From a virus, in the IMG/VR virus record IMGVR_UViG_3300028590_000011, positions 1 to 64,000 of that record: 64,000 nt of DNA; one strand, 5' to 3'. The notes under the pieces were generated by a model. That model had not been told where the DNA came from. It did not search any database and saw only the letters and a program-made list of their open reading frames with translations. The position numbers and the translations under genes are program-made. Below are positions 48,401-63,158 of the stretch, piece after piece (within the stretch, counting starts at the first letter, position 1; every line of letters begins with the position of its first letter).

Positions 48401-48813
48401 CGCTCGACCGCCTTCACGTTGTACCTGCGCGTGGCTCGGAGCTCACCAGCACGAGCCGAGGAGATGATCTCGAACCGCTTGCCCAGCATCGAGGTGTCCT
48501 GTGTGGGCGCGTAGGTGATCACGATCTGATCGTTCTTGCGCAGGATCGGGGAGTTCCAGGGCAGCGAGAGCTGGACGTTCTGGACCATGATGTCGGTCTC
48601 TCCGAGCATCACAGCGCCTGCTCCCTGGATCTCCCAGATCCTGCACGGGGAGTCCTCGATGATGAGGGTCCGAGAAGTAGCCGGGATGGTCAGGTCGTCT
48701 CCATCCTCGAAGTCCACACGCGTCAGGCGCTCTGCATCGCAGCGGTACTCCATGACCGCCGTGGCACGAGAGCGCACATAGTTGCGCGCGCGAGGAGAGA
48801 TGGGAGAGGCCAT
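48397..48813 (-). CDS. Head-to-tail stopper-like protein
   Basis: Synteny; L.LP.....L...D motif. Confidence 0.6.
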   Translation of the reverse strand: MASPISPRARNYVRSRATAVMEYRCDAERLTRVDFEDGDDLTIPATSRTLIIEDSPCRIWEIQGAGAVMLGETDIMVQNVQLSLPWNSPILRKNDQIVITYAPTQDTSMLGKRFEIISSARAGELRATRRYNVKAVER

Positions 48814-49031
48814 CAGATCATTCCTGTTACGGCTCGTCCGAGCGTGCGAGCGACACCGAGAGTGGGATGTTGCGGACTGAGAGTGCCGATCTTGTTAGCA
48901 ACCTTCACGGTCGTCAGCTGTCGCCGCGTGACCGCCTTGCGCGCTCCAGCCTTGTGCTTGGGGTTGACGACCTTGGGCTGGAGTAGCGCCTTGGAGACCT
49001 CGCCATGGTCTACTCCGAAGGCGCTGATCAT
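48813..49031 (-). CDS. Small basic protein with N-terminal SAFGVDH tag
   Basis: MISAFGVDHGEVSKA. Confidence 0.75.
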   Translation of the reverse strand: MISAFGVDHGEVSKALLQPKVVNPKHKAGARKAVTRRQLTTVKVANKIGTLSPQHPTLGVARTLGRAVTGMI

Positions 49032-49243
49032 CAGGACGCCAGGAGACCGGCTGCCCGCAGCGAGGCGAGCAGGGCGTTGACCTTGGCCACCGTGGTCGGC
49101 AGGTCAGCACCGCCAGCGAGGTTGGCCACCGCAGCAGCGGGCTCCAGGTTCAGCGGAGAGTCCGAGTCCGCCAGAGCGAGAGCAATGGGGCGCGGGACCT
49201 CCAGAGACCGGAGTGCGTCGTACTTGTCCTTGTCGTATGCCAT
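49031..49243 (-). CDS. Head fiber-like small protein
   Basis: KVNALLASLRAAGLLAS C-terminus. Confidence 0.6.
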   Translation of the reverse strand: MAYDKDKYDALRSLEVPRPIALALADSDSPLNLEPAAAVANLAGGADLPTTVAKVNALLASLRAAGLLAS

Positions 49244-49244
49244 C

Positions 49245-49721
49245 TCAGACTCCTGGGTTCTCTTCCGGGTAGTACTCGGGGAAGTCCTGGCTGCCGTAAT
49301 CCTGGCGACCAGCGGACTTGTCGTCGTGCATCCCCGTGCCGAACGCGAAGGGCTTGATCTCTGGGTGCGTCCCCTCGTAGGGGGAGACGCCGCCCACGTC
49401 TGGGAACCCCCCTACGAGGGAACTCTTGTGCTGCTCCCGGAGGGAAGCAGCGAGTTCACGGAACTGCTGGGCTACCGCTCCGAGGTTGATGGAGACGCCA
49501 TCCGCGCTGTACGACACCTCGCGCGCGTACCGAGCAGCCAGGGAGTCCGCGATGGCCGCAGCCACGAACTCCAGGGTGCCGTACAGCGGCTTCCACTTGG
49601 AGATCATGTAGTTGATCTCCTCGTCCTGCGCGAACCACTCAGAGTCCGCGCCGGTGTCCTGGATCAGGAACCGGACTACGTCCTTGTCAGTGGCCAGCGA
49701 GGGGTCGTATGAGGTGGTCAC
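49245..49721 (-). CDS. Head-to-tail adaptor
   Basis: D.VRFLIQDT.....F.QDEEI.Y. Confidence 0.75.
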   Translation of the reverse strand: MTTSYDPSLATDKDVVRFLIQDTGADSEWFAQDEEINYMISKWKPLYGTLEFVAAAIADSLAARYAREVSYSADGVSINLGAVAQQFRELAASLREQHKSSLVGGFPDVGGVSPYEGTHPEIKPFAFGTGMHDDKSAGRQDYGSQDFPEYYPEENPGV

Positions 49722-50059
49722 AGCTTCGTCTCGGTCTTGTTCTTCTTGCGGCCGGACTTCCAGGTGCTGTAGCCAGCACCGCCCAGCACAGCGGCACCGG
49801 TGACAGCAGGCTTCGCTGCCACAGCCTTGCCAGCGAGCTCAGCGACACGACCGACTCCACGACCGACATCAGCGACGCTCACCTTGGCGTTGGCAGCCTT
49901 GCCAGGGATCGCGGTCAGCTTGCCGAGGCGAGCCTTGTTCCGGGCGTAAGCAGCCTGCTGGTTGGCGCGCACGTTGGCCTTGTGCTGCGCCTTACGACGA
50001 CCAGCGGGGGTCAGCGCCTTGGAGACTTCTCCATGCTCGACCCCGAACGCGCTCTCCAT
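49718..50059 (-). CDS. Basic protein with N-terminal SAFGVEH tag
   Basis: MESAFGVEHGEVSKA. Confidence 0.75.
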   Translation of the reverse strand: MESAFGVEHGEVSKALTPAGRRKAQHKANVRANQQAAYARNKARLGKLTAIPGKAANAKVSVADVGRGVGRVAELAGKAVAAKPAVTGAAVLGGAGYSTWKSGRKKNKTETKL

Positions 50060-50060
50060 G

Positions 50061-50387
50061 TCAGGCCCCCTTCTTCCGGTTGGCGTAGACACCACCGGTC
50101 AGACCGACAGCGCCGCCGCCAATGACAGCCTTGCCGGTAGTCGTGCCCGCGAAGCCCTTGGCGCTGTTGCCAGCGGCACCAGCGAAGGACTTGGCCTTCT
50201 GGCCCATGGTCGACTGGAACGCCTTACGAGCGCCACCAGCAGGCGCGCCAGGCTTCTTCTGAGCACCAGTCATGGACTGCTGCCCCAGCCTCTTCAGGTT
50301 GCCGCCCATGGCGCTGACCTTGCCCGTGGGCATGGAGAAGGCCTTGGAGACCTCACCGTGCTCTACTCCGAATGCGCTCTCAGACAT
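50061..50387 (-). CDS. Basic protein with N-terminal SAFGVEH tag
   Basis: MSESAFGVEHGEVSKA. Confidence 0.75.
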   Translation of the reverse strand: MSESAFGVEHGEVSKAFSMPTGKVSAMGGNLKRLGQQSMTGAQKKPGAPAGGARKAFQSTMGQKAKSFAGAAGNSAKGFAGTTTGKAVIGGGAVGLTGGVYANRKKGA

Positions 50388-51090
50388 TGTCGAGGATGCC
50401 CTTCCGCTTCTTGTTGGCCTGCTCCACAGCCACCACGCGGTTGTACTCCTCTTCGGAGATGTCGCTCGCGAGGTAGTCCATGACCTCATCCACGGTGTGC
50501 TCCGTGGGGTCGTAGAGGTCTTCCTCAGTGATCACCGGCTCGTCATCTTCGAGATCCTCGCCCTCAGAGACGACGTTCTGTCGTTCTCCGGATAGAGCAG
50601 CGGTCTCTTCAGCAACAGGGTCGTCGCCACTCTCGTCGCCAGGGACAGTGTCGTCCCCATCGAGAACATCATCAGATCCCTCTGCGTTCTCGTCATCCAG
50701 CACCTTCTCCGTCAGGGCGTTGGCGTGAGCCTCGGCCTTCAGAGCAGCGGCGACATCCTGGTCCTCGTACTTCTTCGCCGGGGTGGTCTCCACCGACGGG
50801 AACGTGAGGTCATGCTGCTTCGGCTTGTTGTACGCCGACTCACCCAGCGCAGTGCCGAGCTTGGCGTCGATGACTTCCCGAGACCAGACGTGGTGGTGCC
50901 AGTGGCGCGGCTGGTCAGCGGGGTCATCGACCACCGCGAAGAGACGCCGCGTACGGATGAGCAGATCGATACGACCGGTGGCCTCGTCCTGAGGGAACTC
51001 TTCCCCCATCGAGTAGTCCTTACCGGCGTACGTGAAGTTGCGAGCGCAGATGAAGTACACCGCGCCGTTGTTGTAGAGCTGGGACGGCAT
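50380..51090 (-). CDS. Acidic hypothetical protein after the capsid gene
   Basis: C-terminal TVDEV..YL...E....KRKGIL. Confidence 0.7.
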   Translation of the reverse strand: MPSQLYNNGAVYFICARNFTYAGKDYSMGEEFPQDEATGRIDLLIRTRRLFAVVDDPADQPRHWHHHVWSREVIDAKLGTALGESAYNKPKQHDLTFPSVETTPAKKYEDQDVAAALKAEAHANALTEKVLDDENAEGSDDVLDGDDTVPGDESGDDPVAEETAALSGERQNVVSEGEDLEDDEPVITEEDLYDPTEHTVDEVMDYLASDISEEEYNRVVAVEQANKKRKGILDNV

Positions 51091-51110
51091 CTCTATCTCC
51101 TCAGATAGTG

Positions 51111-51144
51111 AGAGGGGGCCAGGGACTACTCCCCAGCCCCCTCT
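51111..51144 (-). terminator. Hairpin after the major capsid gene
   Basis: AGAGGGGGC/GCCCCCTCT inverted repeat. Confidence 0.55.
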
Positions 51145-51160
51145 ACAGGTAACGCGTGGA

Positions 51161-52159
51161 TCAGGCGACAGCGTCCGCGAGGAAGATGCCCATGTCGGGG
51201 GAGACGACCTTCATGTCGTAGGTCATCTCGCCCTCGATGCGGTCCGAGGCGATGTGCTCCATCCGGAAGTTCTTCATCCGGATGCCGTAGCTGTTGCCAG
51301 CCAGATAGCCGTTCCAGGTGAAGATGTAGCCCGAAGCAGGAGTCATCAGCGACGGAGACGACGGCGTGTAGCACAGGAGCGCGCTCTTCGAGTTGCTCAT
51401 GAAGCTGTACGACGCGGCAGCGTCCTGGGTGTCAGCGTCGTTGCGCTCAGCGACATCCGTGAAGGAAGCGTACGAGACCAGGATCTTCTCCACGTCGAAG
51501 AGCGACGCGAGGAGGTCGGTGGTCACGACACCCTTCTGGGTGTACTTGATCCGGTCGATGATGTCCGGGTGGTTCTTCAGCGAGGTGATCGCCTCAGCAC
51601 CGAGGACCAGGGTGTTGGCCTTCCGACCAGACTGGAGGACGAAGTCCGTCTGGAGGTTGGCGAACTGCACGATCGGGTCCGACGCGGCGTCGTTCCACTG
51701 GAGGAACTGCGAGCCAGACGGAGCGGCAGCAACACCAGCAAGGTCGGTGCCCCAGACACCGGTCTTGAAGTAGGCGTTGTTCCAGTCCAGGTCACGCTTC
51801 AGCAGGAGCTGGTTGGTGACGAACTTGGTCGCGTCCTTGTCCAGGCTCCAGTTGGAGTCGGCGTTGGCACGGGTCTGGTCGTCCAGGTCCTTGTGGACCG
51901 CGTACACCTGCGCGTAGTAGGTGTCCGTGTCGACCTTGTAGCCGATACCAGCGGACTCGGTACCCGGCGCACGCTTCTGGACATCGGTCCGACGCCAGTC
52001 GGACTTGCTGTACTTCCAGAAGAGGTCCGACTGCTTCTGCACCGGAACTCGCGGGAAGACCTTGTCAGCGATGAACGTCGCAGTGTCCTGCATGTACGCC
52101 ACGCTGACGTTGGTCAGCGGTGCGTTGACGTGGAGATCGCTCTGAGTCGGGTTAGGCAT
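51161..52159 (-). CDS. Major capsid protein
   Basis: LTNVSVAY.Q...FIADKVFP.VPV; W....SDPI; position. Confidence 0.88.
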   Translation of the reverse strand: MPNPTQSDLHVNAPLTNVSVAYMQDTATFIADKVFPRVPVQKQSDLFWKYSKSDWRRTDVQKRAPGTESAGIGYKVDTDTYYAQVYAVHKDLDDQTRANADSNWSLDKDATKFVTNQLLLKRDLDWNNAYFKTGVWGTDLAGVAAAPSGSQFLQWNDAASDPIVQFANLQTDFVLQSGRKANTLVLGAEAITSLKNHPDIIDRIKYTQKGVVTTDLLASLFDVEKILVSYASFTDVAERNDADTQDAAASYSFMSNSKSALLCYTPSSPSLMTPASGYIFTWNGYLAGNSYGIRMKNFRMEHIASDRIEGEMTYDMKVVSPDMGIFLADAVA

Positions 52160-52174
52160 AGCTCGCTCCTCCTA

Positions 52175-52591
52175 TCAGAGCTGGATCAGAAGGAGAACCG
52201 AGATCAGCTCTCCAGCGTTGGCAACGGACGAGACCGCCACACCGACGCAGAGACCGCCGCCGCCAGTGGCGTCAGTGGCCTGTCCGTCAGCAGAGACGAA
52301 GACCTTCTCGCCAGCGTCGATGGCCTTGTCAGCCACCACCTTGCTGACACCTCGGATACCGACAGTGGCAGCGCCACCCGTGACCTGAGGCTTGTTCTGC
52401 ACGACACCGATCACGCCGGTGTCGTCCGCGTCCGCGAGACCGACCTGATGCGCGCCGGTCACCTTCACGAAGTGGTACTGCTTACCACCGTTGGGCGAAG
52501 CGCTGCCAGGCTGGCCGGGGACGCCGGTGTACTGCGCCAGGGTCGCATCCGCGTTAAGCGTGATGGACCGGAGGCTCTCCTCGTACGCCAT
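52175..52591 (-). CDS. Capsid decoration/cement protein
   Basis: GVVQNKP...G.A.V...G.SKV.A. Confidence 0.75.
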   Translation of the reverse strand: MAYEESLRSITLNADATLAQYTGVPGQPGSASPNGGKQYHFVKVTGAHQVGLADADDTGVIGVVQNKPQVTGGAATVGIRGVSKVVADKAIDAGEKVFVSADGQATDATGGGGLCVGVAVSSVANAGELISVLLLIQL

Positions 52592-52614
52592 GAGATTCCC
52601 TACCCTTCCTTATC

Positions 52615-53418
52615 TCAACGTCCCCGCGAAGCGAGGTACTCGTCGTATGCCTGCGGGTTGTCGTCCAGGACATTCACGATGTCCGTGGCACCAGCGGACT
52701 TGCCGATCGTCTCCGAGGCGTAGGCGGTCACAGTGTCCATGACATCGGCGTTGTCGCCGCCGCCCCGGTAGCCGACCTCCTGGAAGAGAGCCTCACCGGC
52801 AGTCTCCAGGCACTTGGCGATGACCGCGCAGTCCTCGTAGCTCATCGTCTCGGCCATCCGATACAGGACCGGGCCGAGCTCCTCACCGGAGACCGGGAGG
52901 TTGTAGCTGTCCGCCTTGGAGATGTACTCGCGGGTCAGGCGCAGGTCACGCTCGGCCTTGGCAGCCTTGGCGATCTCCTGGGTCTGCTTCTCCAGCTCGT
53001 CCACTCGGCCGAGCGCCTTGGAGATGATCTTGTCGCGGTCCTCGTCGCTGAACGCCTTCGACAGCTCTTCGAGCACCGACTGGGCGAATCCGCCCTTGGG
53101 GGCCTGGGTCTGGTCGAAGAAAGCCGACTTACCAACGGTAGCCAGTTCCTTGTCCTCGACGTTCTCCTCCTCCGTCAGGGTGAACTCGTAAGCGTTCCCC
53201 TCGGAGTCGTATACGACCTGGCCGTCCTCCAGGGTCTCCTGGTCCAGGGCCTTGCCGTTCTCATCGAACAGGTCGATCTCTGCGGGCATGTTGTCCTCCT
53301 CAGGAGCCCTCTTAGCGATGGTGATCATTGCGTGCTGATTGGCACCCTTGTCGACCAGAGAGATCTCATCGATCTCCATGTTGGTCAGGTTCTTAATCGG
53401 CTTCGGCATCTCCATCAA
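52615..53418 (-). CDS. Scaffolding protein with N-terminal protease strand
   Basis: DEISLVDKGAN N-terminus; helical body with repeated I/V/L-x-K-A/S. Confidence 0.7.
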   Translation of the reverse strand: MMEMPKPIKNLTNMEIDEISLVDKGANQHAMITIAKRAPEEDNMPAEIDLFDENGKALDQETLEDGQVVYDSEGNAYEFTLTEEENVEDKELATVGKSAFFDQTQAPKGGFAQSVLEELSKAFSDEDRDKIISKALGRVDELEKQTQEIAKAAKAERDLRLTREYISKADSYNLPVSGEELGPVLYRMAETMSYEDCAVIAKCLETAGEALFQEVGYRGGGDNADVMDTVTAYASETIGKSAGATDIVNVLDDNPQAYDEYLASRGR

Positions 53419-53449
53419 CCTCTGTTCTTAGTCTCGGGTGTACGTCTAG

Positions 53450-54223
53450 TCAGTCATGAACGATGCCGAAGGCCGACTCGTTCGAGCTCTTCTTGAAGTT
53501 CTGGCGACGGCGCTGGTTGATCTTGTGTTGCTGATAGGTGTGCTGTCCCTTGGCCCCCGCGCCAACAGCGGCAGCAGTTCCAACGAGAGCGGCTCCACCC
53601 ACGCCAGCGGCTACGGTCTTCTTGGCCTTCGCTGCGCCAGAGACGATCTTCCCAGCAGACTTAAGTCGTCCACCGGCCTTCAACCCCATCGTCCTGTTCA
53701 CGCGGTCAGCGGTCTTCAGGTTGCTACCGAGACGCTTGAAGGACTTCGAGTCGCTGTTATACGCCGCAGCAGTGACACCAGCACCGAGAGCAGCACCAGC
53801 GCCAGCTGCGCGCATCACCTTGCGATCTCTGCGCTGAGTCTGTTCCCGCTGATCGATCGTCTTCCAGTTCCCGAACTTGGAGATCTCGAAGGGGTCGTTC
53901 TTCTTCACGGGAGTCCTCTTCCTCGACTCAGCATTGGTGTACGCGGCGAAGTTGTAGCCGCCCACACCGCCGATGCCACCAGAGACCACACCGATGTTCT
54001 TAGCCTGGTCTCCAATCTTGTTGCCGACAGCCTTGACTTGGTTGTCGGTCCGTCCGGAGTACTTGGGGATCTTGCGCAACATCCCCGGCTTCTTCTTCAG
54101 AGCAGCACCAGCACCCAGTAGTCCCAGACCAGTCAGCCCCAATGTGGAGGTGGTCTGGGAGATGTGTCCTTGGACCTTCTTGCGGCGCTTGATCTCCGCG
54201 TCGCTCATGATCCGGTTAGCCAT
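53450..54223 (-). CDS. Basic Gly/Ala-rich protein with C-terminal SAFGIVH tag
   Basis: Ends FKKSSNESAFGIVHD. Confidence 0.75.
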   Translation of the reverse strand: MANRIMSDAEIKRRKKVQGHISQTTSTLGLTGLGLLGAGAALKKKPGMLRKIPKYSGRTDNQVKAVGNKIGDQAKNIGVVSGGIGGVGGYNFAAYTNAESRKRTPVKKNDPFEISKFGNWKTIDQREQTQRRDRKVMRAAGAGAALGAGVTAAAYNSDSKSFKRLGSNLKTADRVNRTMGLKAGGRLKSAGKIVSGAAKAKKTVAAGVGGAALVGTAAAVGAGAKGQHTYQQHKINQRRRQNFKKSSNESAFGIVHD

Positions 54224-55079
54224 GGTCTACCCCGAACGCGCTCATGGTGTCCGACTTGGAGATGCCGCGCTTCTTCCGGCTGTGGTGCACCGCAGCAGTC
54301 GCGCCAGCAGCCCCCAGGCCCAAGGTGATGGCTCCACCGGACTTGCCGGTGTGTGTCACGGCGAGCGTCCGCTTCATCTTCCCGCCAGGCAGATCCTTGG
54401 GGTAGTTGCGGAAGAACTGCCGGAACCGAGGATCGCCAGCGGTCATCCCCTTCGGGCGGTACTTGTCCTCATGCGCCTTCATCTTCTTGCGCATCCCAGG
54501 GTTCGACTTGATCTTCTTCTCGTTCTTCCAGTCGAGGGGCTTGGTAGCCATCACCCCACCCTGGTATCCGAGCATGGCTCCAGCACCACCGGCGTACGCA
54601 GCCGTGGTGTCCTTGCGGTCCATCGCCTTGCCGAACTTCTCGTTCTTCTTCGCCTGGTGCATGGCACCGGCGTACGACAGTGGCAGGCCCACGCCTACAG
54701 CGCCCAGCCAGAGTTTCGACTGCTTGGGGTAGACCTTCGGCTTGATCGCCCTGCGCGCGACCTTCAGATCGTTCAACTTGCGGTACCCAGCCTTGCGCTC
54801 AGCGCGGAGTGCTTCCTTCGCAGCGGGCTTGTGCCGGTTCAGGGTCGAGTCACCCTTGCGGTTCTCCTGCTGCCACGAGCCCCGAGCAGGTCGCTTCGGG
54901 ATGGCTGCCTCAGCACGGGCGATCTTCTTGTCCGCAACGTTCTGTCGTACCGCGATGGTCTTGCGCTCGACCCGAGAGACAGCAGGAACACCCAGCGCCA
55001 TCGCGCCGCCACCCACAGCAACAGCAGCGCCACCGTGGGTCTTCTTGTCCTTCTGCTTCCGGAACTCCTCGAAGTCCAT
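54216..55079 (-). CDS. Basic Gly/Ala-rich protein with C-terminal SAFGVDH tag
   Basis: Ends ISKSDTMSAFGVDHG. Confidence 0.75.
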   Translation of the reverse strand: MDFEEFRKQKDKKTHGGAAVAVGGGAMALGVPAVSRVERKTIAVRQNVADKKIARAEAAIPKRPARGSWQQENRKGDSTLNRHKPAAKEALRAERKAGYRKLNDLKVARRAIKPKVYPKQSKLWLGAVGVGLPLSYAGAMHQAKKNEKFGKAMDRKDTTAAYAGGAGAMLGYQGGVMATKPLDWKNEKKIKSNPGMRKKMKAHEDKYRPKGMTAGDPRFRQFFRNYPKDLPGGKMKRTLAVTHTGKSGGAITLGLGAAGATAAVHHSRKKRGISKSDTMSAFGVDHG

Positions 55080-55080
55080 G

Positions 55081-56046
55081 TCACTCTCCCATCGGTGTAC
55101 GCATCCCGCGCCCGTGGATGGAGAAGCCGGTGCGCTCACCGTTCTTCACCTTGCTCCACAGTTCGGGGTCGTTGATCTGGTAGCCAACCCACCAGCCAAC
55201 CGGCATCTCCTCAGGGAGACCCAGCGCCTTCTTCTTCTCCGGGGTCACTACAAAGGACTCGATCATGTCCGACTTGTGCACCGGAGCATCACCGTCGCGT
55301 AGGTGCATGTCGCCACCCTTGCGGGACTTGTGCACGTACTCGTACGCGGACTTCTCTACCTCGCTGATGGAGATGTAGTCGCCCTGGAGATCGACCACTG
55401 GCTCGCCGTTCATCTCCACGATGGAGGCCCAGCCGAAGACCTGCTGCTTGTCGGAGTCGACCTTGGAGATCTCACCCTCCCAGCGCACGTCGAACTCATC
55501 AGCCTTCTTGGAGACCTGGGACTTCAGCCGGATCATCCCCTGCTTCGTCCCGCACTTGACCTTGGTCTCGACATGGTTCCCAGCCTTGGTGAGCACCTTG
55601 CGCTTCAGGGCACCGGTGGAGATGTGCAACTCCGACTGATCCGGGCTGGCCTTGTGGACCCTGGCCTTCTTGGGCTTGCTCGATGCAGAACGTGCGAGCA
55701 CGCGGTTGGCGACAGCGTCTCCGGCGATGTTAGCCACCTGGAGACCGAGAGCGCCACCAGCCAGCGCTGCGCCCGTCTTACCAGCCTTGGACGAGATCGG
55801 CTTCGGGATCTTCTGACCCGTCGCGTAGATCTTCCGAGAGAGCTTCCCGCCCTCCTTGAACCGGTCGTCGCGCAGAGCGGCAGCAGTACCAGCCACACCC
55901 GCACCGAGGCCAACGATGTTCGAGGCGAGACCCACCTGGGCCTGTCGCTTCTCGCGCTTGGCCTGAGCGTCCATCTTGGCCACAAGGTCGTCAGCGCCGC
56001 CTCCATACAGAAGGTTCGCTACCTCACGGAACGCATCAGTGCTCAT
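55081..56046 (-). CDS. XkdF-like capsid maturation protease with N-terminal extension
   Basis: QVFGWA, D.QGD.I, MH, GWWVG, W..VKNGE.TGFSI.G. Confidence 0.8.
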   Translation of the reverse strand: MSTDAFREVANLLYGGGADDLVAKMDAQAKREKRQAQVGLASNIVGLGAGVAGTAAALRDDRFKEGGKLSRKIYATGQKIPKPISSKAGKTGAALAGGALGLQVANIAGDAVANRVLARSASSKPKKARVHKASPDQSELHISTGALKRKVLTKAGNHVETKVKCGTKQGMIRLKSQVSKKADEFDVRWEGEISKVDSDKQQVFGWASIVEMNGEPVVDLQGDYISISEVEKSAYEYVHKSRKGGDMHLRDGDAPVHKSDMIESFVVTPEKKKALGLPEEMPVGWWVGYQINDPELWSKVKNGERTGFSIHGRGMRTPMGE

Positions 56047-56068: not shown

Positions 56069-58051
56069 CTACTCATCGTGATCACCGAACTCCTCCATCT
56101 CCACGTCCGGGAGTGCATCGAACACCGGGAAGAAGAACCGGTTGTTCGCGGTGCCTACGCGCTGCTTGGTGTCTTCCAGTACGTAGTCGCCTTCGGTGAC
56201 CCAACTCTCCAGCCCGTTCCGAGTCGGAGCATCAGCCTGGTAGGTCCTACCCAGCGAGGAGTCATGACCCTCGTCCAAGCGCAGGACCATGAAGGTCAGG
56301 TTGTCTGGGTTGACCCCCCACTCCCGAGCCAGTTCGCCGTAGGTGATCTGGTCAGGCATCTTGTAGTCAGGAACTCCACCTTCAGTGGTGTACCAGTCCA
56401 GGTTGATCTTGGTGTTCTCGCCAGTCCAGTCCGGGTCGCCGTTGGCGTTCCCAGAAGCGATGGCTTCTACCAGAGCGAAGATGTCATCATCCTCGATGAA
56501 GGCGTGGTACTTGTTGCCGTCCTCGCCGTACATCTCGACCATGCCGCCCGTGTGGTCCTTGATGGACTCGTACTCGTCCATGATCGCCTCATCGAGGCGC
56601 TGCACTGCTCGCTCTGCGATCAGCACCTCGTCCGGGCTCCACACTATGCTGCTGTTGGCGTTCAGGTAGTCGTTGTAGGTGCTCAACTCATGCGGCGTGA
56701 CGACTGTGTACACGGGGTACTGCTTGCCGTTCTCAGACTGGATCTTGACCGTAGGCGAGTAGAAGACTCGGTTCCTCGGCTTCTCCAGCGCCTTCAGTCG
56801 AACCAGGTCACGGGCCACATCCTCGGTCAGCGCCAGCTTCTGGAGCGGAGGCATCCCCAATCGGGTCTTGGTCTGCTCCTCGCGACCGAGTGAGACCTTC
56901 TCCGCAGTCTTATCGCTCAGCGAGACATGTTCGATCGGAGTCAGACGGACCTTTCGCTGAGGAGACAGACGAACTTTGCGATCCTCAGAGAGCCGTACCT
57001 TCTGCTCCGGCTCCAGCCTGACCTTCTCCTGCTCTCGGATCACCGGCTCAGCGTCGCGCACGCGCTGCGCTTCTCCTACCAGGTTGTCCAGGAAGGCCGA
57101 AGGCTTGTCCTGGGTCTTGACCGCGAACCGTCCGTCCGAGGTGCGCTTGTACTCGTCGTCGTACCAGCGATCCGCCTTGGAGACGATCGGGTCTACAACC
57201 TTCACCTCGCACCGGCAGTTGGGGTGAACACCGGGAACCCACATCTCGATCTTGTTGGGCAGCACGAAGCGCTCGCTGACGCCCACTCGCTTGCCGTGCA
57301 TCGGGCCGCAGATGGCGCAGGTCTTCTCGTCCTTGGCCGTCAGCCAGACCTTCTCGGCCTCAGCTGAGAGAGCCCCGTGATCCTGCATCCAGAGCCACGC
57401 CGTCTGCTTCGCCTGGAGGTCGAGGTTGTGAACCTCCTGCTTAGCGAACACCTTCAGGCGGCTCCTGATGGAGCGACCGATGTACTCCCTGACCATCTGC
57501 TTGGCAGACATAGGCTGCGCGCTGGTGATCTTCTTCTTCACGTCCAACGCAACGTAGCCACTCATCTGGCGAGGAGTGAGCCCGTACGCGTCCAGCGCCC
57601 GGTCCGCAGCAACGCGGACAGGAAGCTGACGATTGACGAAGGAGTTGAACCCCTGGAGCAGCGCGTCCTTGGAGGTGGCATCGAAGTACTCACCGATCCG
57701 GCGAGTGTGCTGCTCAGCCAGTGCGTAGATAGTCGTCATTGGCACATCGCCAGCGCCAGCAGCGCGGTACGCGCGCACGTACGCCTCAGCAGCAGCCGGA
57801 CCGAGGATCGCGTTCTTCCGACCCAGGAACAGAGCCGAAGCCTGGTCCAGGAGAGCCACCAGTCGAGATCCAGTGATCTCTGGCTCCTTGGCGATCTGCT
57901 CCTTGATGTAGTTGATGACCAGCAACCGGTGCGACATCAGTGCCGAGTGGATCATCTCCTCCAGGCTGCCGAGGTGCTTCTCGTCTGCACGCTTCAGAGC
58001 CCCCACCGCAAGGTCAGGGGCTAGAAGCTCTACATAGGGAGCAGTGGTCAC
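56069..58051 (-). CDS. MuF/SPP1 gp7-like head morphogenesis protein with C-terminal extension
   Basis: KVWLTAKDEKTCAIC..MHG...HPNCRC. Confidence 0.8.
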   Translation of the reverse strand: MTTAPYVELLAPDLAVGALKRADEKHLGSLEEMIHSALMSHRLLVINYIKEQIAKEPEITGSRLVALLDQASALFLGRKNAILGPAAAEAYVRAYRAAGAGDVPMTTIYALAEQHTRRIGEYFDATSKDALLQGFNSFVNRQLPVRVAADRALDAYGLTPRQMSGYVALDVKKKITSAQPMSAKQMVREYIGRSIRSRLKVFAKQEVHNLDLQAKQTAWLWMQDHGALSAEAEKVWLTAKDEKTCAICGPMHGKRVGVSERFVLPNKIEMWVPGVHPNCRCEVKVVDPIVSKADRWYDDEYKRTSDGRFAVKTQDKPSAFLDNLVGEAQRVRDAEPVIREQEKVRLEPEQKVRLSEDRKVRLSPQRKVRLTPIEHVSLSDKTAEKVSLGREEQTKTRLGMPPLQKLALTEDVARDLVRLKALEKPRNRVFYSPTVKIQSENGKQYPVYTVVTPHELSTYNDYLNANSSIVWSPDEVLIAERAVQRLDEAIMDEYESIKDHTGGMVEMYGEDGNKYHAFIEDDDIFALVEAIASGNANGDPDWTGENTKINLDWYTTEGGVPDYKMPDQITYGELAREWGVNPDNLTFMVLRLDEGHDSSLGRTYQADAPTRNGLESWVTEGDYVLEDTKQRVGTANNRFFFPVFDALPDVEMEEFGDHDE

Positions 58052-61000
58052 TGGGACTTCCGCTTGTCGGCGTACATCTCCATGGTGAGCCTCTCGGCTT
58101 CCTTGACAGTGTCAGCCCCGCCGAACACACCGCCACGGAGGTCTTCCACATCCTCATGCGACTTCACTCGCTGCCGCTCATCGTGCAGAGCCTGAGCGGC
58201 GATGTAGAGAGTGTCAGCAGCGTTGTCGTTACCCAAGTCGGCGTAATACTGAGCAGCCTTCTCGAACTCGCTGATGAGCGTCGACACTCGACCCTGGGGC
58301 CGGAGCTTCTCCTCAGCGGTCACAGGAGCGTTTCGGATGACGATGTCTCCCGACTCCTGGCGCATGGTCCCCTCAGGGCCCTGTCCGTCCTTCAGCGCGC
58401 GCATCCGGTGCACCGTCTCCAGTTGCGCGGTGATCTGCTTCGGGTCAGAGACCAGTCGGGTCACGACCGGCGAGTTACGCACGACCTGGAGATCACGAAG
58501 CAGTTCCACACGGTCCATCGCAGGCAGGTCGTCCGGACCCTGACCGAGGAAGGTACGCATCTCCTTCAGGACGTTGTACTCGTCCTTCAGCTCAGCCTCG
58601 TTCATCTCAGAGAGTGGCTTGTCGTGCCGTACGCCACCCGAGTCGATCTTCTTCATCTCGGCCATCCGAGCGCTCAGATCAGCACCGGTCTCGTAGGCAG
58701 CACCAGAGAAGGCGAAGGGCTTGTCGCCCCAGACCCCAGCCACATCAGCGCCGTACTCCTTGCGACCGACATGACCAGCAGCCACCTTGTACGCTGCACC
58801 AGCCTCACCGAGCCTGACGTTGGCGCTAACTGCGCGCGACACCAGCGAGTCGAACTTGGCCTGGTTCTCCGGCTGGGCCAGCTCCTCCGGGGTGAGGTTG
58901 AGAAGCTTGGCCTCTTCCTCGTTCGGCTCGATCCGGTCCTTCAGCACAGCCTGCACAGAGACCGCAGCCTCCGCGTAGTTCTGCGCCGCACGGCGCTCAG
59001 CCACCACGCTCTTGACCGACTTCTTCTGCTCACCGGTGGGGTTGAGCTGGAAGTTCTTCGCATCGAAGGGAGCAGGGCCATCCGGTGAGGGAGCGCCCCG
59101 TCGCGGACCACCGCTACCCCGACCACCCTGGTAGTCGGCCTCAGATGCCGAGAACTTCCCACCAACCATGGTGGGGTTGCGCTTGGCGTTACCGAACAGA
59201 CCAGCGGCTGCGTAGGTCGGGCGGTTGCGTCCCGGCTCCACGTAACCACGGTCGAGCGAGGTCTCCATGCGGTCCATGTGACGACGCGGGACAGCGTTGG
59301 CGTCCTTGATGTAGTACGGGAACTGCTCCTGGAGCGCGATGAGGGCAGCCTTGTAACCCTCGCCGTTCAGCCGGTACTTGTACTCCTTCTCGGCGGCGAG
59401 TTCGTTCATCACGTCGCCCATGAAGTCGTCCGCGTCCTTGCCCTGCGAGCCCTGAGCGCGCTGAGTAGCGATGAACCGGGCCAGCCGCTCGTCGTGGTCG
59501 CTCAGTTCCGGAGACGACTTGAACTCGTCCACGCGGCGGTTGATCTCGGTCTGGATGTCCTTACGCGGGGCGTACCCGCCCATCTCCTCCATGACCTCGG
59601 TCTTGATCGCCTCGCGGATCTCCGGGTTGAGAGACATCCGATCGACCTGCTCCGACTGCACTGCGTCGAGGAGCTGCTCATAGCGCCGAGTCATCCGGCG
59701 AGCTTTGTCGTTGTAGCGACGACCACCGGTGAAGTCCTGCTCGAACTCCATGGTGAAGACACCCGAACGAGAGACCACCGTGACCTGGCGAGCACCAGAC
59801 ATGAGACCGGTGTAGACATCCTCGGAGGTGAGGCCACCGACAGAGCGGTTGCGGATGTACTCCCCGCCCTTCAGACCCTTCAACTTGCGGAGGTTGAAGG
59901 GCAGATAGTGGTCGTCTCCATAGCCCACGGCCTGGTCTACGACCTTGCCGTCCTTGTCGATGATCACGCCCTCAGACGGAGGGGTGTTGCCCGAAGCGAG
60001 CTGGAGGTCGTAGAGCTTCTGGCTCGGAATCCTCCGCGACAGGTACTCGACCGCCACCGCCCGACCGTTGGCTCGCTCCTCCCAGGTAGGAGCGCGTCGC
60101 TCAGCCGAGATGCGGGCAGCAGCCATCTGCACCGGCGAGAGTTCCTGCGGGCGCTTCAGGTTGGCCTTCTTACCCTCCGGGGTGTTCCGGTACGGGTCGT
60201 TGGCAGTGGCCAACTTCGCATCGCGCATGGCGCGGTCCACAGCACCGACGACCACCTTGTCCGGGGTCTTGGAGGTGCCCCGGTAGCGGTAGGCGGTCTT
60301 ACGCGCCGAAGGGCCGAAGACAGCCTCAGCCTCCGAGCCATGGTCACCGACGAACTGAGCCATCCGCGCTGCGAGCTGAACCTTGGACCCAGCCGGAGCG
60401 ATCTCGCCGACGATCTTGGAGCCAGCGGACAGTCGTCCGTACAGACGCGCGTTCGAGTCCCGGCCGTCTACCTGCTGGTTCCAGTCCTGCTCGAAGGATC
60501 CGAAACCGGAGTCGACAGCGTTGATGCCGCGCATGGTCTCGTAGCGCTGCTTGGAGCCGTCCGCGCCCAGAGAAGTAGACAGACCGAAGTACGCCCCACC
60601 AGCGGTGAGCGCGTTCGGACGCGCATCCAGACCCACCAGGTCCTCGTGCTTGGGGTCCCACATCTTCGGGTCCGGTCGCGTCGAGGAGGTAGTGACGGTG
60701 TACACCTGGCCGTTGTGCTTGTTCCGGATGTGGGCGATCACGTCGCTGTCGCCGGGGTTGCGAGAGGACGCGTGAACGGCCCCGAGGAAGTTGGTCAGCT
60801 GCCGGTACTGGTCCTGGTAGGCAGCAGCACGACGCGGCGGGAGACCCTCGACATCCTTGCCATGCGGGAGCCCCATCGACTCAGCCGTACGCCCCTTGAT
60901 GGGCTTCACCTGAGAAGTGGTCACCTTGGCCCGGAACCGACCAGTGCCGGGGTCACGGCTGAAGTCGGACTCCTTGAACCGGTAGCCGTAGTCGTACGGG

Positions 61001-61317
61001 GTCGCCTTGGAGATCTCCGAGAGAGCCTTGGCGAACTCCACAGCGCCGTCCGTGTCCTTGGCAGCAGCACGCATCGTGGCGCGCTTCAGCACCTCCACGC
61101 GCTTGGAGATGACCTTGTTCAGGTGACGCTGGAGAACGGGCAGATTCTTCTCGATCGTCTCTTCGACCATGTCGTTGGCGACGTGGTAGCAGAACTCGCG
61201 AGCCTCTTCCTCGTCCATCTTCATGATGAGGTCGTAGACCTTCTGGGCAGCCTTGTAGTTGAAGTCCGGGTTGTCGGACTTGAAGATCGAACCGCGCTCG
61301 ATCGGCGTGAGAGTCAC
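58048..61317 (-). CDS. Large (1089 aa) putative virion protein with a JAB-like segment
   Basis: Coupled between portal and MuF. Confidence 0.7.
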   Translation of the reverse strand: MTLTPIERGSIFKSDNPDFNYKAAQKVYDLIMKMDEEEAREFCYHVANDMVEETIEKNLPVLQRHLNKVISKRVEVLKRATMRAAAKDTDGAVEFAKALSEISKATPYDYGYRFKESDFSRDPGTGRFRAKVTTSQVKPIKGRTAESMGLPHGKDVEGLPPRRAAAYQDQYRQLTNFLGAVHASSRNPGDSDVIAHIRNKHNGQVYTVTTSSTRPDPKMWDPKHEDLVGLDARPNALTAGGAYFGLSTSLGADGSKQRYETMRGINAVDSGFGSFEQDWNQQVDGRDSNARLYGRLSAGSKIVGEIAPAGSKVQLAARMAQFVGDHGSEAEAVFGPSARKTAYRYRGTSKTPDKVVVGAVDRAMRDAKLATANDPYRNTPEGKKANLKRPQELSPVQMAAARISAERRAPTWEERANGRAVAVEYLSRRIPSQKLYDLQLASGNTPPSEGVIIDKDGKVVDQAVGYGDDHYLPFNLRKLKGLKGGEYIRNRSVGGLTSEDVYTGLMSGARQVTVVSRSGVFTMEFEQDFTGGRRYNDKARRMTRRYEQLLDAVQSEQVDRMSLNPEIREAIKTEVMEEMGGYAPRKDIQTEINRRVDEFKSSPELSDHDERLARFIATQRAQGSQGKDADDFMGDVMNELAAEKEYKYRLNGEGYKAALIALQEQFPYYIKDANAVPRRHMDRMETSLDRGYVEPGRNRPTYAAAGLFGNAKRNPTMVGGKFSASEADYQGGRGSGGPRRGAPSPDGPAPFDAKNFQLNPTGEQKKSVKSVVAERRAAQNYAEAAVSVQAVLKDRIEPNEEEAKLLNLTPEELAQPENQAKFDSLVSRAVSANVRLGEAGAAYKVAAGHVGRKEYGADVAGVWGDKPFAFSGAAYETGADLSARMAEMKKIDSGGVRHDKPLSEMNEAELKDEYNVLKEMRTFLGQGPDDLPAMDRVELLRDLQVVRNSPVVTRLVSDPKQITAQLETVHRMRALKDGQGPEGTMRQESGDIVIRNAPVTAEEKLRPQGRVSTLISEFEKAAQYYADLGNDNAADTLYIAAQALHDERQRVKSHEDVEDLRGGVFGGADTVKEAERLTMEMYADKRKSQ

Positions 61318-63158
61318 TTCTTACCGTCCTTCTTGGGTGCGGGCTTCTTGGCAGCCTCGCGCTGCTTGATCTTCAACTGCTCCATCGCGCGCTGGTGCTT
61401 CTTCTGCTCAACGGCTTCCTGGAGAGTCATCTTCTCCTTCTCGCGCTTCAGGCCAGAGTCGGCGCTCCGCTCTTGGAGAGCCATCTTCTCCTTCTCGCGA
61501 GCGTGCTGCTTCTCAGCGTTGGGGTCCTCAGGCGGCGGCTGGTTCTGCATAGCCAACTGCTGCTGCTCCTTGGCCTCGTCCATCTGGCCGACCGGGTGCT
61601 GACGACGGATCAGCTCCGCGTCCATCTCATCGCTGGCCATCTGCTGCTGCATCTCGGGCGTCGGCATGTTCTGGACCTGGTCAGCCTGCTCCGGGCTGTA
61701 GCCCTGGGCTGCCATCTCCGCACGCTGCTGGAGACCGATGAGACCCATCTGAGAGTCAGCGAACTGCATCGCCTGCTCCTGGACGAGCATCTGCCGCTTG
61801 AACTCCTCGGACTCCGGAGTCATCTCCGGGAGGCGAGCGATGTCGCGAACGAACTTCTCCAGCTCCGGGTCCGGGAACCACTGCATACCGGCACCAGCCG
61901 TAGCCGAGATGAAGCCAGCGAGCTGGTTCAGGTCAGGCGGGTCGATGTCGGTGGGCTCGAACTTGGGCAGTTCGTCCAGCTTCCAGCCGTTCACTGCGAA
62001 CAGCTTGGGGACCAGGTGTCGATTCAAGGTGTCCGCGATCGACTTCACGATGGCGTTCAGGGCAGCCCGGAAGATGCCCGTCTTGTCAGTGTGCAGTGAG
62101 TAGGAGCCGACCTGCTGGTGGCCCACCAGGATGAAGTCCGCGAGAACGCTCATCAGGATGCGCTGCTCGTACCGCTGGATGATCGAGTTGGTGTCGAACT
62201 GACGCGAGCCCGAGGAACTCATCAGCTCGAAGTCGAAGAGCGGCTGCTTGGTGTCCCGGTCGTACTGGACAGGGAGGACCAGGCCCTCGTTCTCGTCCCT
62301 GCGCACGCCACGGACCATCTTACGAAAGGCCTCGACCGTCTTGGCCTGGTCGGTACCAGGCTGCGCCTTCATGAACTCGGCAGGCACCTTAGCGACCGGC
62401 ATACCCGCGAGGTCACGCTCGACACCGATGGCCTCGAACTCCTCCAGGCGCTTCTTGAAGTACCAGGAGCGGTAGGCGGTGCGGAGCAGGCTGACGCCCT
62501 CCGGGTTGCCCTTGGCGATCGAGGTACGGAACAGCAGCGACTTCTCGATCGGGATGACAGTGGTCTGGTAGACCGGGGGTGCCATCTGCACCATGGACTT
62601 GATCCCGCCCGACTCATCGAAGGACCAGCGGAGCATGGTCTCCTGCGAGCGAATGGGCATCTTGCGGATGCCGAACTTCCCATCCGTGTGCTTGGAGCGC
62701 TTCGACGGGTCCTTCTCCCAGGGTCCGACCCTCTTCTTGAAGACGATCTCGTGCCAACTCCACCCGTAGGTGAGCATGGAGAGAACCTCACCGATGAAGT
62801 CGTCCCAGGAGTGGCTCATGTCGTCCATGCAGGACTCCAGGAACTCCTTGGCAGCCTCAGCATCCTTGCCGTTCTCCGGAGGCAGGACGTTCCACTCCAC
62901 CTCGCGGATCAGCTTGTCGATAGCGAACAGCAGCGACCCCACCATGGAGTCGTTGGTCGACATCTCGCGGTAGACCTTGACTGCCTTGCGACCTCGGAGT
63001 GCCGGGAGGAACTCCTCATCGATATAGCCCGCGACGCGCTTGACACCCGTGACACCCAGCTCCTGGAGCGGGCCAACGTTCTTCGGGACTTCGTCTCCGA
63101 CGTTGTCGTCATAGCCACGGTCGCCCATCGGCAGGCCCTCGGGCAGTCGTGTCGTCAT
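61314..63158 (-). CDS. Portal protein
   Basis: GNPEG.SLLR.AY..W.FK; follows the terminase. Confidence 0.88.
   Translation of the reverse strand: MTTRLPEGLPMGDRGYDDNVGDEVPKNVGPLQELGVTGVKRVAGYIDEEFLPALRGRKAVKVYREMSTNDSMVGSLLFAIDKLIREVEWNVLPPENGKDAEAAKEFLESCMDDMSHSWDDFIGEVLSMLTYGWSWHEIVFKKRVGPWEKDPSKRSKHTDGKFGIRKMPIRSQETMLRWSFDESGGIKSMVQMAPPVYQTTVIPIEKSLLFRTSIAKGNPEGVSLLRTAYRSWYFKKRLEEFEAIGVERDLAGMPVAKVPAEFMKAQPGTDQAKTVEAFRKMVRGVRRDENEGLVLPVQYDRDTKQPLFDFELMSSSGSRQFDTNSIIQRYEQRILMSVLADFILVGHQQVGSYSLHTDKTGIFRAALNAIVKSIADTLNRHLVPKLFAVNGWKLDELPKFEPTDIDPPDLNQLAGFISATAGAGMQWFPDPELEKFVRDIARLPEMTPESEEFKRQMLVQEQAMQFADSQMGLIGLQQRAEMAAQGYSPEQADQVQNMPTPEMQQQMASDEMDAELIRRQHPVGQMDEAKEQQQLAMQNQPPPEDPNAEKQHAREKEKMALQERSADSGLKREKEKMTLQEAVEQKKHQRAMEQLKIKQREAAKKPAPKKDGKK

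Follow-up and report, generated by a model that had tools for sequence, protein, structure and literature searches.

A portable terminal peptide, SAFG[VI]xH, with an adjoining hydrophobic-x-lysine site: a candidate prohead-targeting handle in the Mu-type head module of an uncultured soil phage

The virus record IMGVR_UViG_3300028590_000011 is a single contig of 80,039 bp with about 62% G+C from an uncultured soil phage; its first 64 kb (positions 1 to 64,000) were analyzed here and are referred to as the window. Between 46 and 63 kb the minus strand encodes a Mu-type head and head-tail module, in which a preliminary description had noted five proteins with a terminal SAFG[VI]xH peptide (hereafter the tag), split from the protein body by a V/I/F-x-K-type site. 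Scanning both the window and the complete genome in six frames bore this out: the motif occurred exactly five times, always on the minus strand and always at a protein terminus. The five copies are listed below; arrows mark candidate scissile bonds here and throughout.

48990-49031, minus strand: N-terminal tag and site of g72N, MISAFGVDHGEVSK↓A (gene 48813-49031)
50018-50059, minus strand: N-terminal tag and site of g113N, MESAFGVEHGEVSK↓A (gene 49718-50059, with a strong ribosome-binding site upstream)
50343-50387, minus strand: N-terminal tag and site of g108N, MSESAFGVEHGEVSK↓A (gene 50061-50387)
53450-53488, minus strand: C-terminal tag of g257C, FKK↓SSNESAFGIVHD, followed by the stop codon (gene 53450-54223)
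54216-54254, minus strand: C-terminal tag of g287C, ISK↓SDTMSAFGVDHG, followed by the stop codon (gene 54216-55079)

The three N-terminal copies start at residue 3 or 4 of small open reading frames (ORFs) and are followed by GEVSK↓A; the two C-terminal copies end proteins of 257 and 287 residues and are preceded by FKK↓S and ISK↓S. A hydrophobic-x-K site was therefore present in 5 of 5 proteins. The start codons of the tagged genes were backed either by a strong ribosome-binding site or by stop/start overlap, as in g108N, whose start overlaps the stop of the gene upstream. At the DNA level the five copies differed at third positions, in line with the synonymous differences described before. 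Outside the tag the five bodies had no pairwise BLAST similarity, and all were basic, with isoelectric points (pI) of 10.6-11.9, so that their description as unrelated and Lys/Arg-rich held. That they are mostly Gly-zipper-like was only partly right, because such segments, though clear in three of the proteins (g257C, g287C and g113N), were weak in g108N and missing from g72N. The Gly/Ala segments in the window were weakly hydrophobic (KD19 0.96-1.7).

The tag was also found in relatives of this phage. A degenerate DNA pattern for AFGV[DE]HGEV matched in 22 IMG/VR contigs, and more than 100 further loci from relatives were found via the protease and the capsid protein. Related IMG/VR contigs carried 2-8 tags each, all on the head-gene strand. 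Among 87 distinct tagged ORFs the tag was N-terminal in 67, C-terminal in 19 and internal in 1; it started at residue 3 in 55 of the 67 N-tagged ORFs, and the C-terminal tags lay 0-19 residues from the stop. Chance was excluded by a reversed control pattern, which gave no match in four related genomes against 22 matches of the forward pattern. In an unbiased search for N-terminal 5-mers common to different ORFs of one locus, words from the tag dominated.

A search of 1.84 billion proteins with a profile of the N-terminal unit retrieved, at E<=1e-3, 463 clusters defined at 50% identity. Within the best 150 matches, which rest on independent gene calls, the tag lay within residues 1-5 in 135, and 9 were polyproteins with 2-4 tags (e.g., P0006, P0034, P0036, P0084). 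These independent calls in relatives also back the start codons assigned to the tagged genes. The N-terminal, C-terminal and internal placements supported the claim of a portable, position-independent tag. The 87 tags were encoded by 83 different 24-nucleotide sequences, using all six codons for Ser (AGY 44, TCN 43) and all four each for Ala and Gly. So many DNA versions and such free codon use indicate selection on the peptide and not on the DNA, as had been proposed. Homologs of g257C were C-tagged in 9 of 11 relatives, and a distant complete genome, G001, with a capsid protein about 50-57% identical, carried the canonical tag twice. A word-indexed homolog search with g72N found a single close relative. 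Prophage or bacterial copies were ruled out: in 185,579 bacterial genomes the DNA pattern matched 71 times, none of the matches was terminal, and all lacked the K site and looked like wrong-frame matches, which makes them usable as a negative control.

The tag and the hydrophobic-x-K site were strictly paired. The first Lys after the N-terminal tag had V, I or F at P3 in 67 of 67 cases and stood 3-8 residues past the His; P2 was Ser in 72%, P4 was Glu in 69% and P1' was Ala or Gly in 69%. The last Lys before the C-terminal tag had Y, V, F, I or L at P3 in 19 of 19 cases and stood 1-7 residues before the Ser. In the polyproteins a hydrophobic-x-K occurred on both sides of each internal tag (e.g., MSK↓SAFGVDHEVSK↓A). 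As every tag has the site on its body-facing side or sides, it would be excisable whichever way it faces the body.

The same site was concentrated in one further protein of the head module, an acidic scaffold.

52615-53418, minus strand: acidic scaffold, pI 4.3, with the true start probably the ATG at 53409

Of the 24 occurrences of the strict form of the site, [VIF][SAGE]K[AGS], in a proteome of about 24,200 residues, 5 fell in the 267-residue scaffold, a 19-fold higher density (1.87 per 100 residues vs 0.099 genome-wide). Comparing the head block with the rest of the genome, the strict site was enriched with an odds ratio of 5.3 (p = 6.5e-4). Nine hydrophobic-x-K positions were conserved across 16 scaffolds, and 0-4 were found in capsid, connector and tail proteins. 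Judged from this distribution, hydrophobic-x-K looks like a general target of the head protease. At residues ~12-36 the scaffold has a conserved strand motif, EIDEISLVDKGANQHA..IAK, that was also found inside protease-scaffold fusion proteins in PHROGs; in this genome the motif and the PF14550 domain of the protease are in separate genes, with two cargo genes between them. A profile of the strand gave no PDB match. The tag as a mimic of this strand (E-I-S-L-V-D-K-G-A-N) was rejected, as hhalign returned a probability of 0.3% over 3 aligned columns.

The preliminary description had assumed that a head protease is available to act on the tag, and the genome does encode a candidate.

55081-56046, minus strand: prohead protease, with PF14550 (XkdF-type) at residues 192-315

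The C-terminal 125 residues matched PF14550 ('XkdF') with 68.4 bits against a cut-off of 24 (E 7.8e-19). His248, Ser259, Ser264, Ser309 and His311 were invariant in 19 relatives and are candidate catalytic residues. The AlphaFold2 model of the protease was confident in the catalytic domain only (predicted local distance difference test, pLDDT, 60-89 in the domain). In a search of 48,161 PDB representative chains its best fold match was T4 gp21 (5jbl_A), with a Z score of 7.0, which is under 8, and a root-mean-square deviation of 3.9 Å over 114 residues; gp21 scored two Z units above the next chain. No report on the cleavage specificity of XkdF was found in the literature searched.

Ahead of the catalytic domain the protease is itself modular. 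Residues 1-24 (window 55975-56046) form a conserved N-terminal propeptide that ends in LVAK↓M and was kept in 19 relatives as ..F-R-E-V-A-x-L-L-[FY]-G-G-G-x-D-x-L-[IV]-x-K↓M. Residues ~25-135 resemble the cargo, with a Gly/Ala helix and a basic module ending in ARVHK↓A. The propeptide is tag-like: it contains FG and an acidic residue and ends in a hydrophobic-x-K. A look for its docking on the catalytic domain with AlphaFold2 was uninformative, as the N-terminal half had pLDDT under 60. As for read-through fusions that would join a tagged gene in frame to the gene for the protease, the scaffold or the capsid protein, the neighbors checked were in different frames.

The bodies that remain once tag and site are taken away were diverse. 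The 86 bodies fell into at least 56 BLAST families; their pI values all exceeded 8, and the medians were 11.8 (N-tagged) and 10.8 (C-tagged). An uncharged Gly/Ala-rich stretch followed by a Lys/Arg cluster ended 60 of the 86, often in the form RxPGLTG-(G/A-rich)-NRKKK. Among 105 tagged proteins, Pfam gave one match to Gly-zipper_YMGG and one to GNAT, the latter being the only enzymatic cargo candidate found. This GNAT protein (L023:1758-2162) is N-tagged, has 135 residues and carries an acetyltransferase domain (PF00583, 27.1 bits). The tagged bodies had no match in PHROGs, and the ESM Atlas returned only unnamed viral clusters and weak matches (TM-score under 0.5) to membrane proteins.

In some lineages the tag took another form. 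The L028 clade, with a capsid protein 69% identical to that of the window, had N-terminal S-x-W-G-[VI]-[DE]-H-G...[VI]SK, and L034, with a capsid protein 62% identical, had GH[DE]AFF followed by GEVSK at both N- and C-termini. Both variants were also terminal and followed by a VSK-type site. Near-complete genomes of other sister lineages had no copy or one W-type copy. The scaffold of the window contains a tag-like VGK↓SAFF, and scaffolds of lineages with the F-type tag had VGK↓SAFF or VGK↓AFGF. This agreement with the tag type was suggestive in the F-tag lineages (SAFF, AFGF) and inconsistent in W-tag or tagless ones.

A g257-like protein was encoded between protease and scaffold in all relatives and is an old member of the head module. 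In L034 a tagless version is fused to the protease in one ORF of 947 residues, which stops where the site would be. In g257C itself a short spacer divides the protein into two Gly-zipper/basic units.

53876-53899, minus strand: internal 8-residue spacer in g257C, VKK↓NDPFEISK↓FG, with two flanking candidate sites

At the position of this spacer the distant homolog from G001 has VSK↓AFFEDVSK↓L, which resembles the GH[DE]AFF variant. In a sister lineage that is tagless by the tag pattern, a Gly-zipper protein encoded right after the protease (L184:4310-4750) has the start ..RRNTAFSK↓S, which may be a still shorter variant of the tag.

The remaining genes belong to the same head module as the tagged ones. 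In order of transcription the module encodes the portal, a 1089-residue protein, a MuF-like protein, the protease, the 287- and then the 257-residue protein, followed by the acidic scaffold, cement protein, major capsid protein, small ORFs and tail tube protein. Five small ORFs after the capsid gene are interleaved with connector genes (DUF6093, HK97-gp10-like).

61314-63158, minus strand: Mu-type portal protein (PF06074)
58048-61317: 1089-residue protein, between the Mu-type portal and MuF
56069-58051, minus strand: MuF-like head morphogenesis protein
52175-52591, minus strand: cement/decoration protein (PF09956)
51161-52159, minus strand: major capsid protein, lambda E/Mu T-like and without a delta domain, a candidate receptor of the tag

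The capsid protein has a pI of 5.0. None of the cultured phages is close; the best capsid matches, about 45% identical, were in Microbacterium phage ValentiniPuff and in Arthrobacter and Rhizobium phages. The closest cultured relatives by this protein (ValentiniPuff, Kovu and Kharcho, ~45% identity) had no common terminal peptide. The 1089-residue protein had no Pfam match; it was 38-48% identical in all relatives, with a common N-terminal motif ..AAQKxxDLxMKMD... In one genome a tagged gene lies between the portal gene and the gene for this protein. The C-terminus of MuF (56069-56090) reads ..VEMEEFGDHDE before the stop and faintly echoes the tag (FG.DH); the echo was not kept in the MuF C-termini of six relatives. 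In two relatives (L015:3539-3814 and L137:2237-2542) a conserved cassette some 20 kb away from the head module contains a tagged gene for a small basic protein, adjoining a gene for a collagen-like (G-x-y repeat) protein.

From the computed anatomy of the tag, its conservation, portability and pairing with the site, the enrichment of sites in the scaffold and the probable prohead-protease fold, we infer binding, cleavage, encapsidation and ejection as the steps of a reading that we favor and to which we give an even chance. The tag would serve as a detachable handle, bringing cargo into the prohead before the XkdF-type protease cuts it off. SAFG[VI][DE]H would recruit unrelated, strongly basic proteins to the assembling prohead by binding one conserved component; candidates are the core made of the acidic scaffold, the capsid protein on its inner face, and the protease. 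Once active, the XkdF-type protease would cut after Lys at hydrophobic-x-K sites. Since the site always stands between tag and body, the handle would be cut away and the cargo freed inside the head, and cleavage at the same kind of site would take the scaffold apart. Cargo released in this way would remain associated with the DNA and exit with it at infection, like T4 internal proteins.

As the scissile bond can be on either side of the tag and at variable distance, the tag is not simply an extended active-site substrate, and by its layout it is probably an independent binding module. With regard to the receptor, the scaffold or shell is suggested by the charge complement between basic cargo and acidic scaffold, by the tag-like VGK↓SAFF or VGK↓AFGF of the scaffolds and by the tag-like propeptide of the protease. 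The protease is suggested by cargo-protease fusions and by the tags kept at every polyprotein joint.

Several observations weigh against the handle reading. The full tag at every polyprotein joint fits a processing signal at least as well, because one tag should suffice for encapsidation. Not all tagged genes are close to the head module (those at G002:3548 and G004:10248 are far from it), and the g257-like proteins of tagless sister lineages apparently manage without a tag. Outside the catalytic domain the protease model is poor, and it is silent on peptide docking. A tblastn search of 50,697 phage records with a tagged N-terminus and a 4-tag polyprotein gave no relevant match, and the tag strings were not found in a phage context in the literature searched.

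We also considered that the tag might be a docking (exosite) or processing signal for the protease only, with no role in head entry. The XkdF-type protease would then recognize the tag and cut the nearest hydrophobic-x-K, thereby maturing basic or membrane-active proteins and polyproteins. This would explain why each module of a multi-tag polyprotein keeps a complete tag with sites on both sides, and it would agree with the tagged genes outside the head module; in addition, the protease has a cargo-like module fused to its N-terminal side in all relatives and to its C-terminal side in L034, a Rosetta-stone hint that cargo and protease interact. However, the many conserved scaffold sites stand without tags, so the protease needs no tag to cut, and a site on either side at variable distance (3-8 residues after the His, 1-7 before the Ser) is unusual for a recognition element. 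Moreover, prohead proteases normally act only inside proheads, and the substrates must therefore enter the head anyway. We consider a docking function alone unlikely.

Two other functions appear less probable still. As a pro-sequence or chaperone handle, the tag would keep unpackaged Gly-zipper/basic proteins soluble, inactive or correctly delivered to the membrane until late in infection. These proteins would have a part, for example, in lysis, in excluding superinfecting phages or in an entry channel that is built in the producing cell. While 60 of the 86 bodies do look like tail-anchored membrane peptides, with their uncharged Gly/Ala-rich segment and terminal basic cluster, and one match to Gly-zipper_YMGG and one weak, below-threshold match to an actinobacterial holin point the same way, the hydrophobicity of the segments is marginal (KD19 0.96-1.7), and bodies without them (g72N, the GNAT protein) are equally tagged. 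It is also hard to see a 7-residue peptide masking a body of 100-450 residues, and the tagged genes of nearly all relatives are interspersed among those for head and connector proteins; this function is therefore improbable. The excised peptide of 11-16 residues might instead be the product itself, released in multiple copies from several precursors, which would either stay in the head, as T4 internal peptides do, or serve as a signal. Conservation of its core far exceeds that of any body, genomes carry it several times, and the polyproteins present it as repeat units between processing sites. Nevertheless, the ends of the released peptide would depend on whether the tag is N-terminal, C-terminal or internal, no gene for export or for a receptor was associated, and the bodies, being long and basic with a common C-terminal architecture, are not mere spacers, which makes a peptide product very improbable. 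A leader of a ribosomally synthesized and post-translationally modified peptide was rejected, as tags also occur at the C-termini of 250-650-residue proteins; the head-module proteins that were scanned contained no maturase domain.

The handle reading can be extended, more tentatively, to a whole clade, and we lean slightly against this wider form. The tag would then be an orientation-independent address code of a large clade of soil phages, read by one receptor and always excised, that loads a fast-evolving arsenal of basic, Gly-zipper and occasionally enzymatic (GNAT) proteins to be delivered with the DNA. Receptor and tag would have co-evolved (from F to W, and to the permuted GH[DE]AFF), and use as a general packaging handle for Mu-like or HK97-fold capsids would be possible.

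Of the known systems, the internal proteins of T4 provide the closest precedent, a comparison already drawn by the preliminary description; they are diverse and basic, and conserved only in the capsid-targeting sequence (CTS), which binds the scaffolding core and is removed by gp21 (PMC3012670; PMC7411985). As with the CTS of IPI-III and Alt, a short peptide beside a candidate prohead-protease site is all that diverse, fast-evolving small basic proteins have in common here, and the protease that would remove it has gp21 as its best fold match. In contrast, the T4 CTS is N-terminal only, while the tag is also C-terminal and inside polyproteins; T4 is cut at L/I-x-E, while the candidate site here is hydrophobic-x-K; and T4 is a myovirus with a T4-type core, while this phage has a Mu-like head, a separate acidic scaffold and an XkdF-type protease (PF14550). 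The tag has no sequence similarity to the T4 CTS. In the giant phages SPN3US and phiKZ, propeptides of ejection proteins are cut by a gp21-like protease and have been proposed to target the prohead (PMC7411985). There too, many head-internal proteins are processed at one consensus site, but the propeptides are long, mutually dissimilar and cut at A/S-x-E. They do not share a 7-residue tag, and neither C-terminal forms nor polyproteins have been reported.

The C-tagged proteins resemble systems in which an internal protein is anchored to the shell through a peptide at its terminus. The herpesvirus scaffold/assemblin has a C-terminal capsid-binding tail, released at the M site just upstream by the maturation protease, and Duda, Oh and Hendrix reportedly described a C-terminal capsid-binding tail of the HK97 gp4 protease in 2013. 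These tails, however, belong to one scaffold or protease protein; they are not known as a portable tag of many unrelated proteins, nor are N-terminal or internal forms of them known. Encapsulin cargo-loading peptides are likewise short terminal peptides on unrelated proteins; they bring cargo into an HK97-fold shell and are not known to be cut off afterwards. Encapsulins are not known to contain DNA or to have a portal or a protease, and their peptide sequences are unrelated to the tag. An encapsulin-type loading peptide was rejected here, as portal, MuF, protease, scaffold and tail genes flank the tags and a candidate cleavage site adjoins every tag.

While the CTS principle is known, the orientation independence of the tag, its use inside polyproteins, the hydrophobic-x-K site, the combination of a Mu-type head with an XkdF-type protease and the Gly-zipper/basic cargo are new. 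If the handle reading is true, capsid targeting would extend beyond T4-like and giant myoviruses and would be a general strategy that arose independently in Mu-type heads with XkdF-type proteases. The tag with its hydrophobic-x-K would then be a rule for finding virion-delivered proteins in metagenomes, with hundreds of clusters, nearly all unannotated, and the site would give a candidate cleavage specificity for the uncharacterized PF14550 protease family. Being so short and attachable to either terminus of a protein, the tag would also serve to load foreign proteins into HK97-fold shells. The cargo, extremely basic and ending in Gly/Ala-rich helices, has no described counterpart and may bear on the passage of DNA through the envelope or on its condensation.

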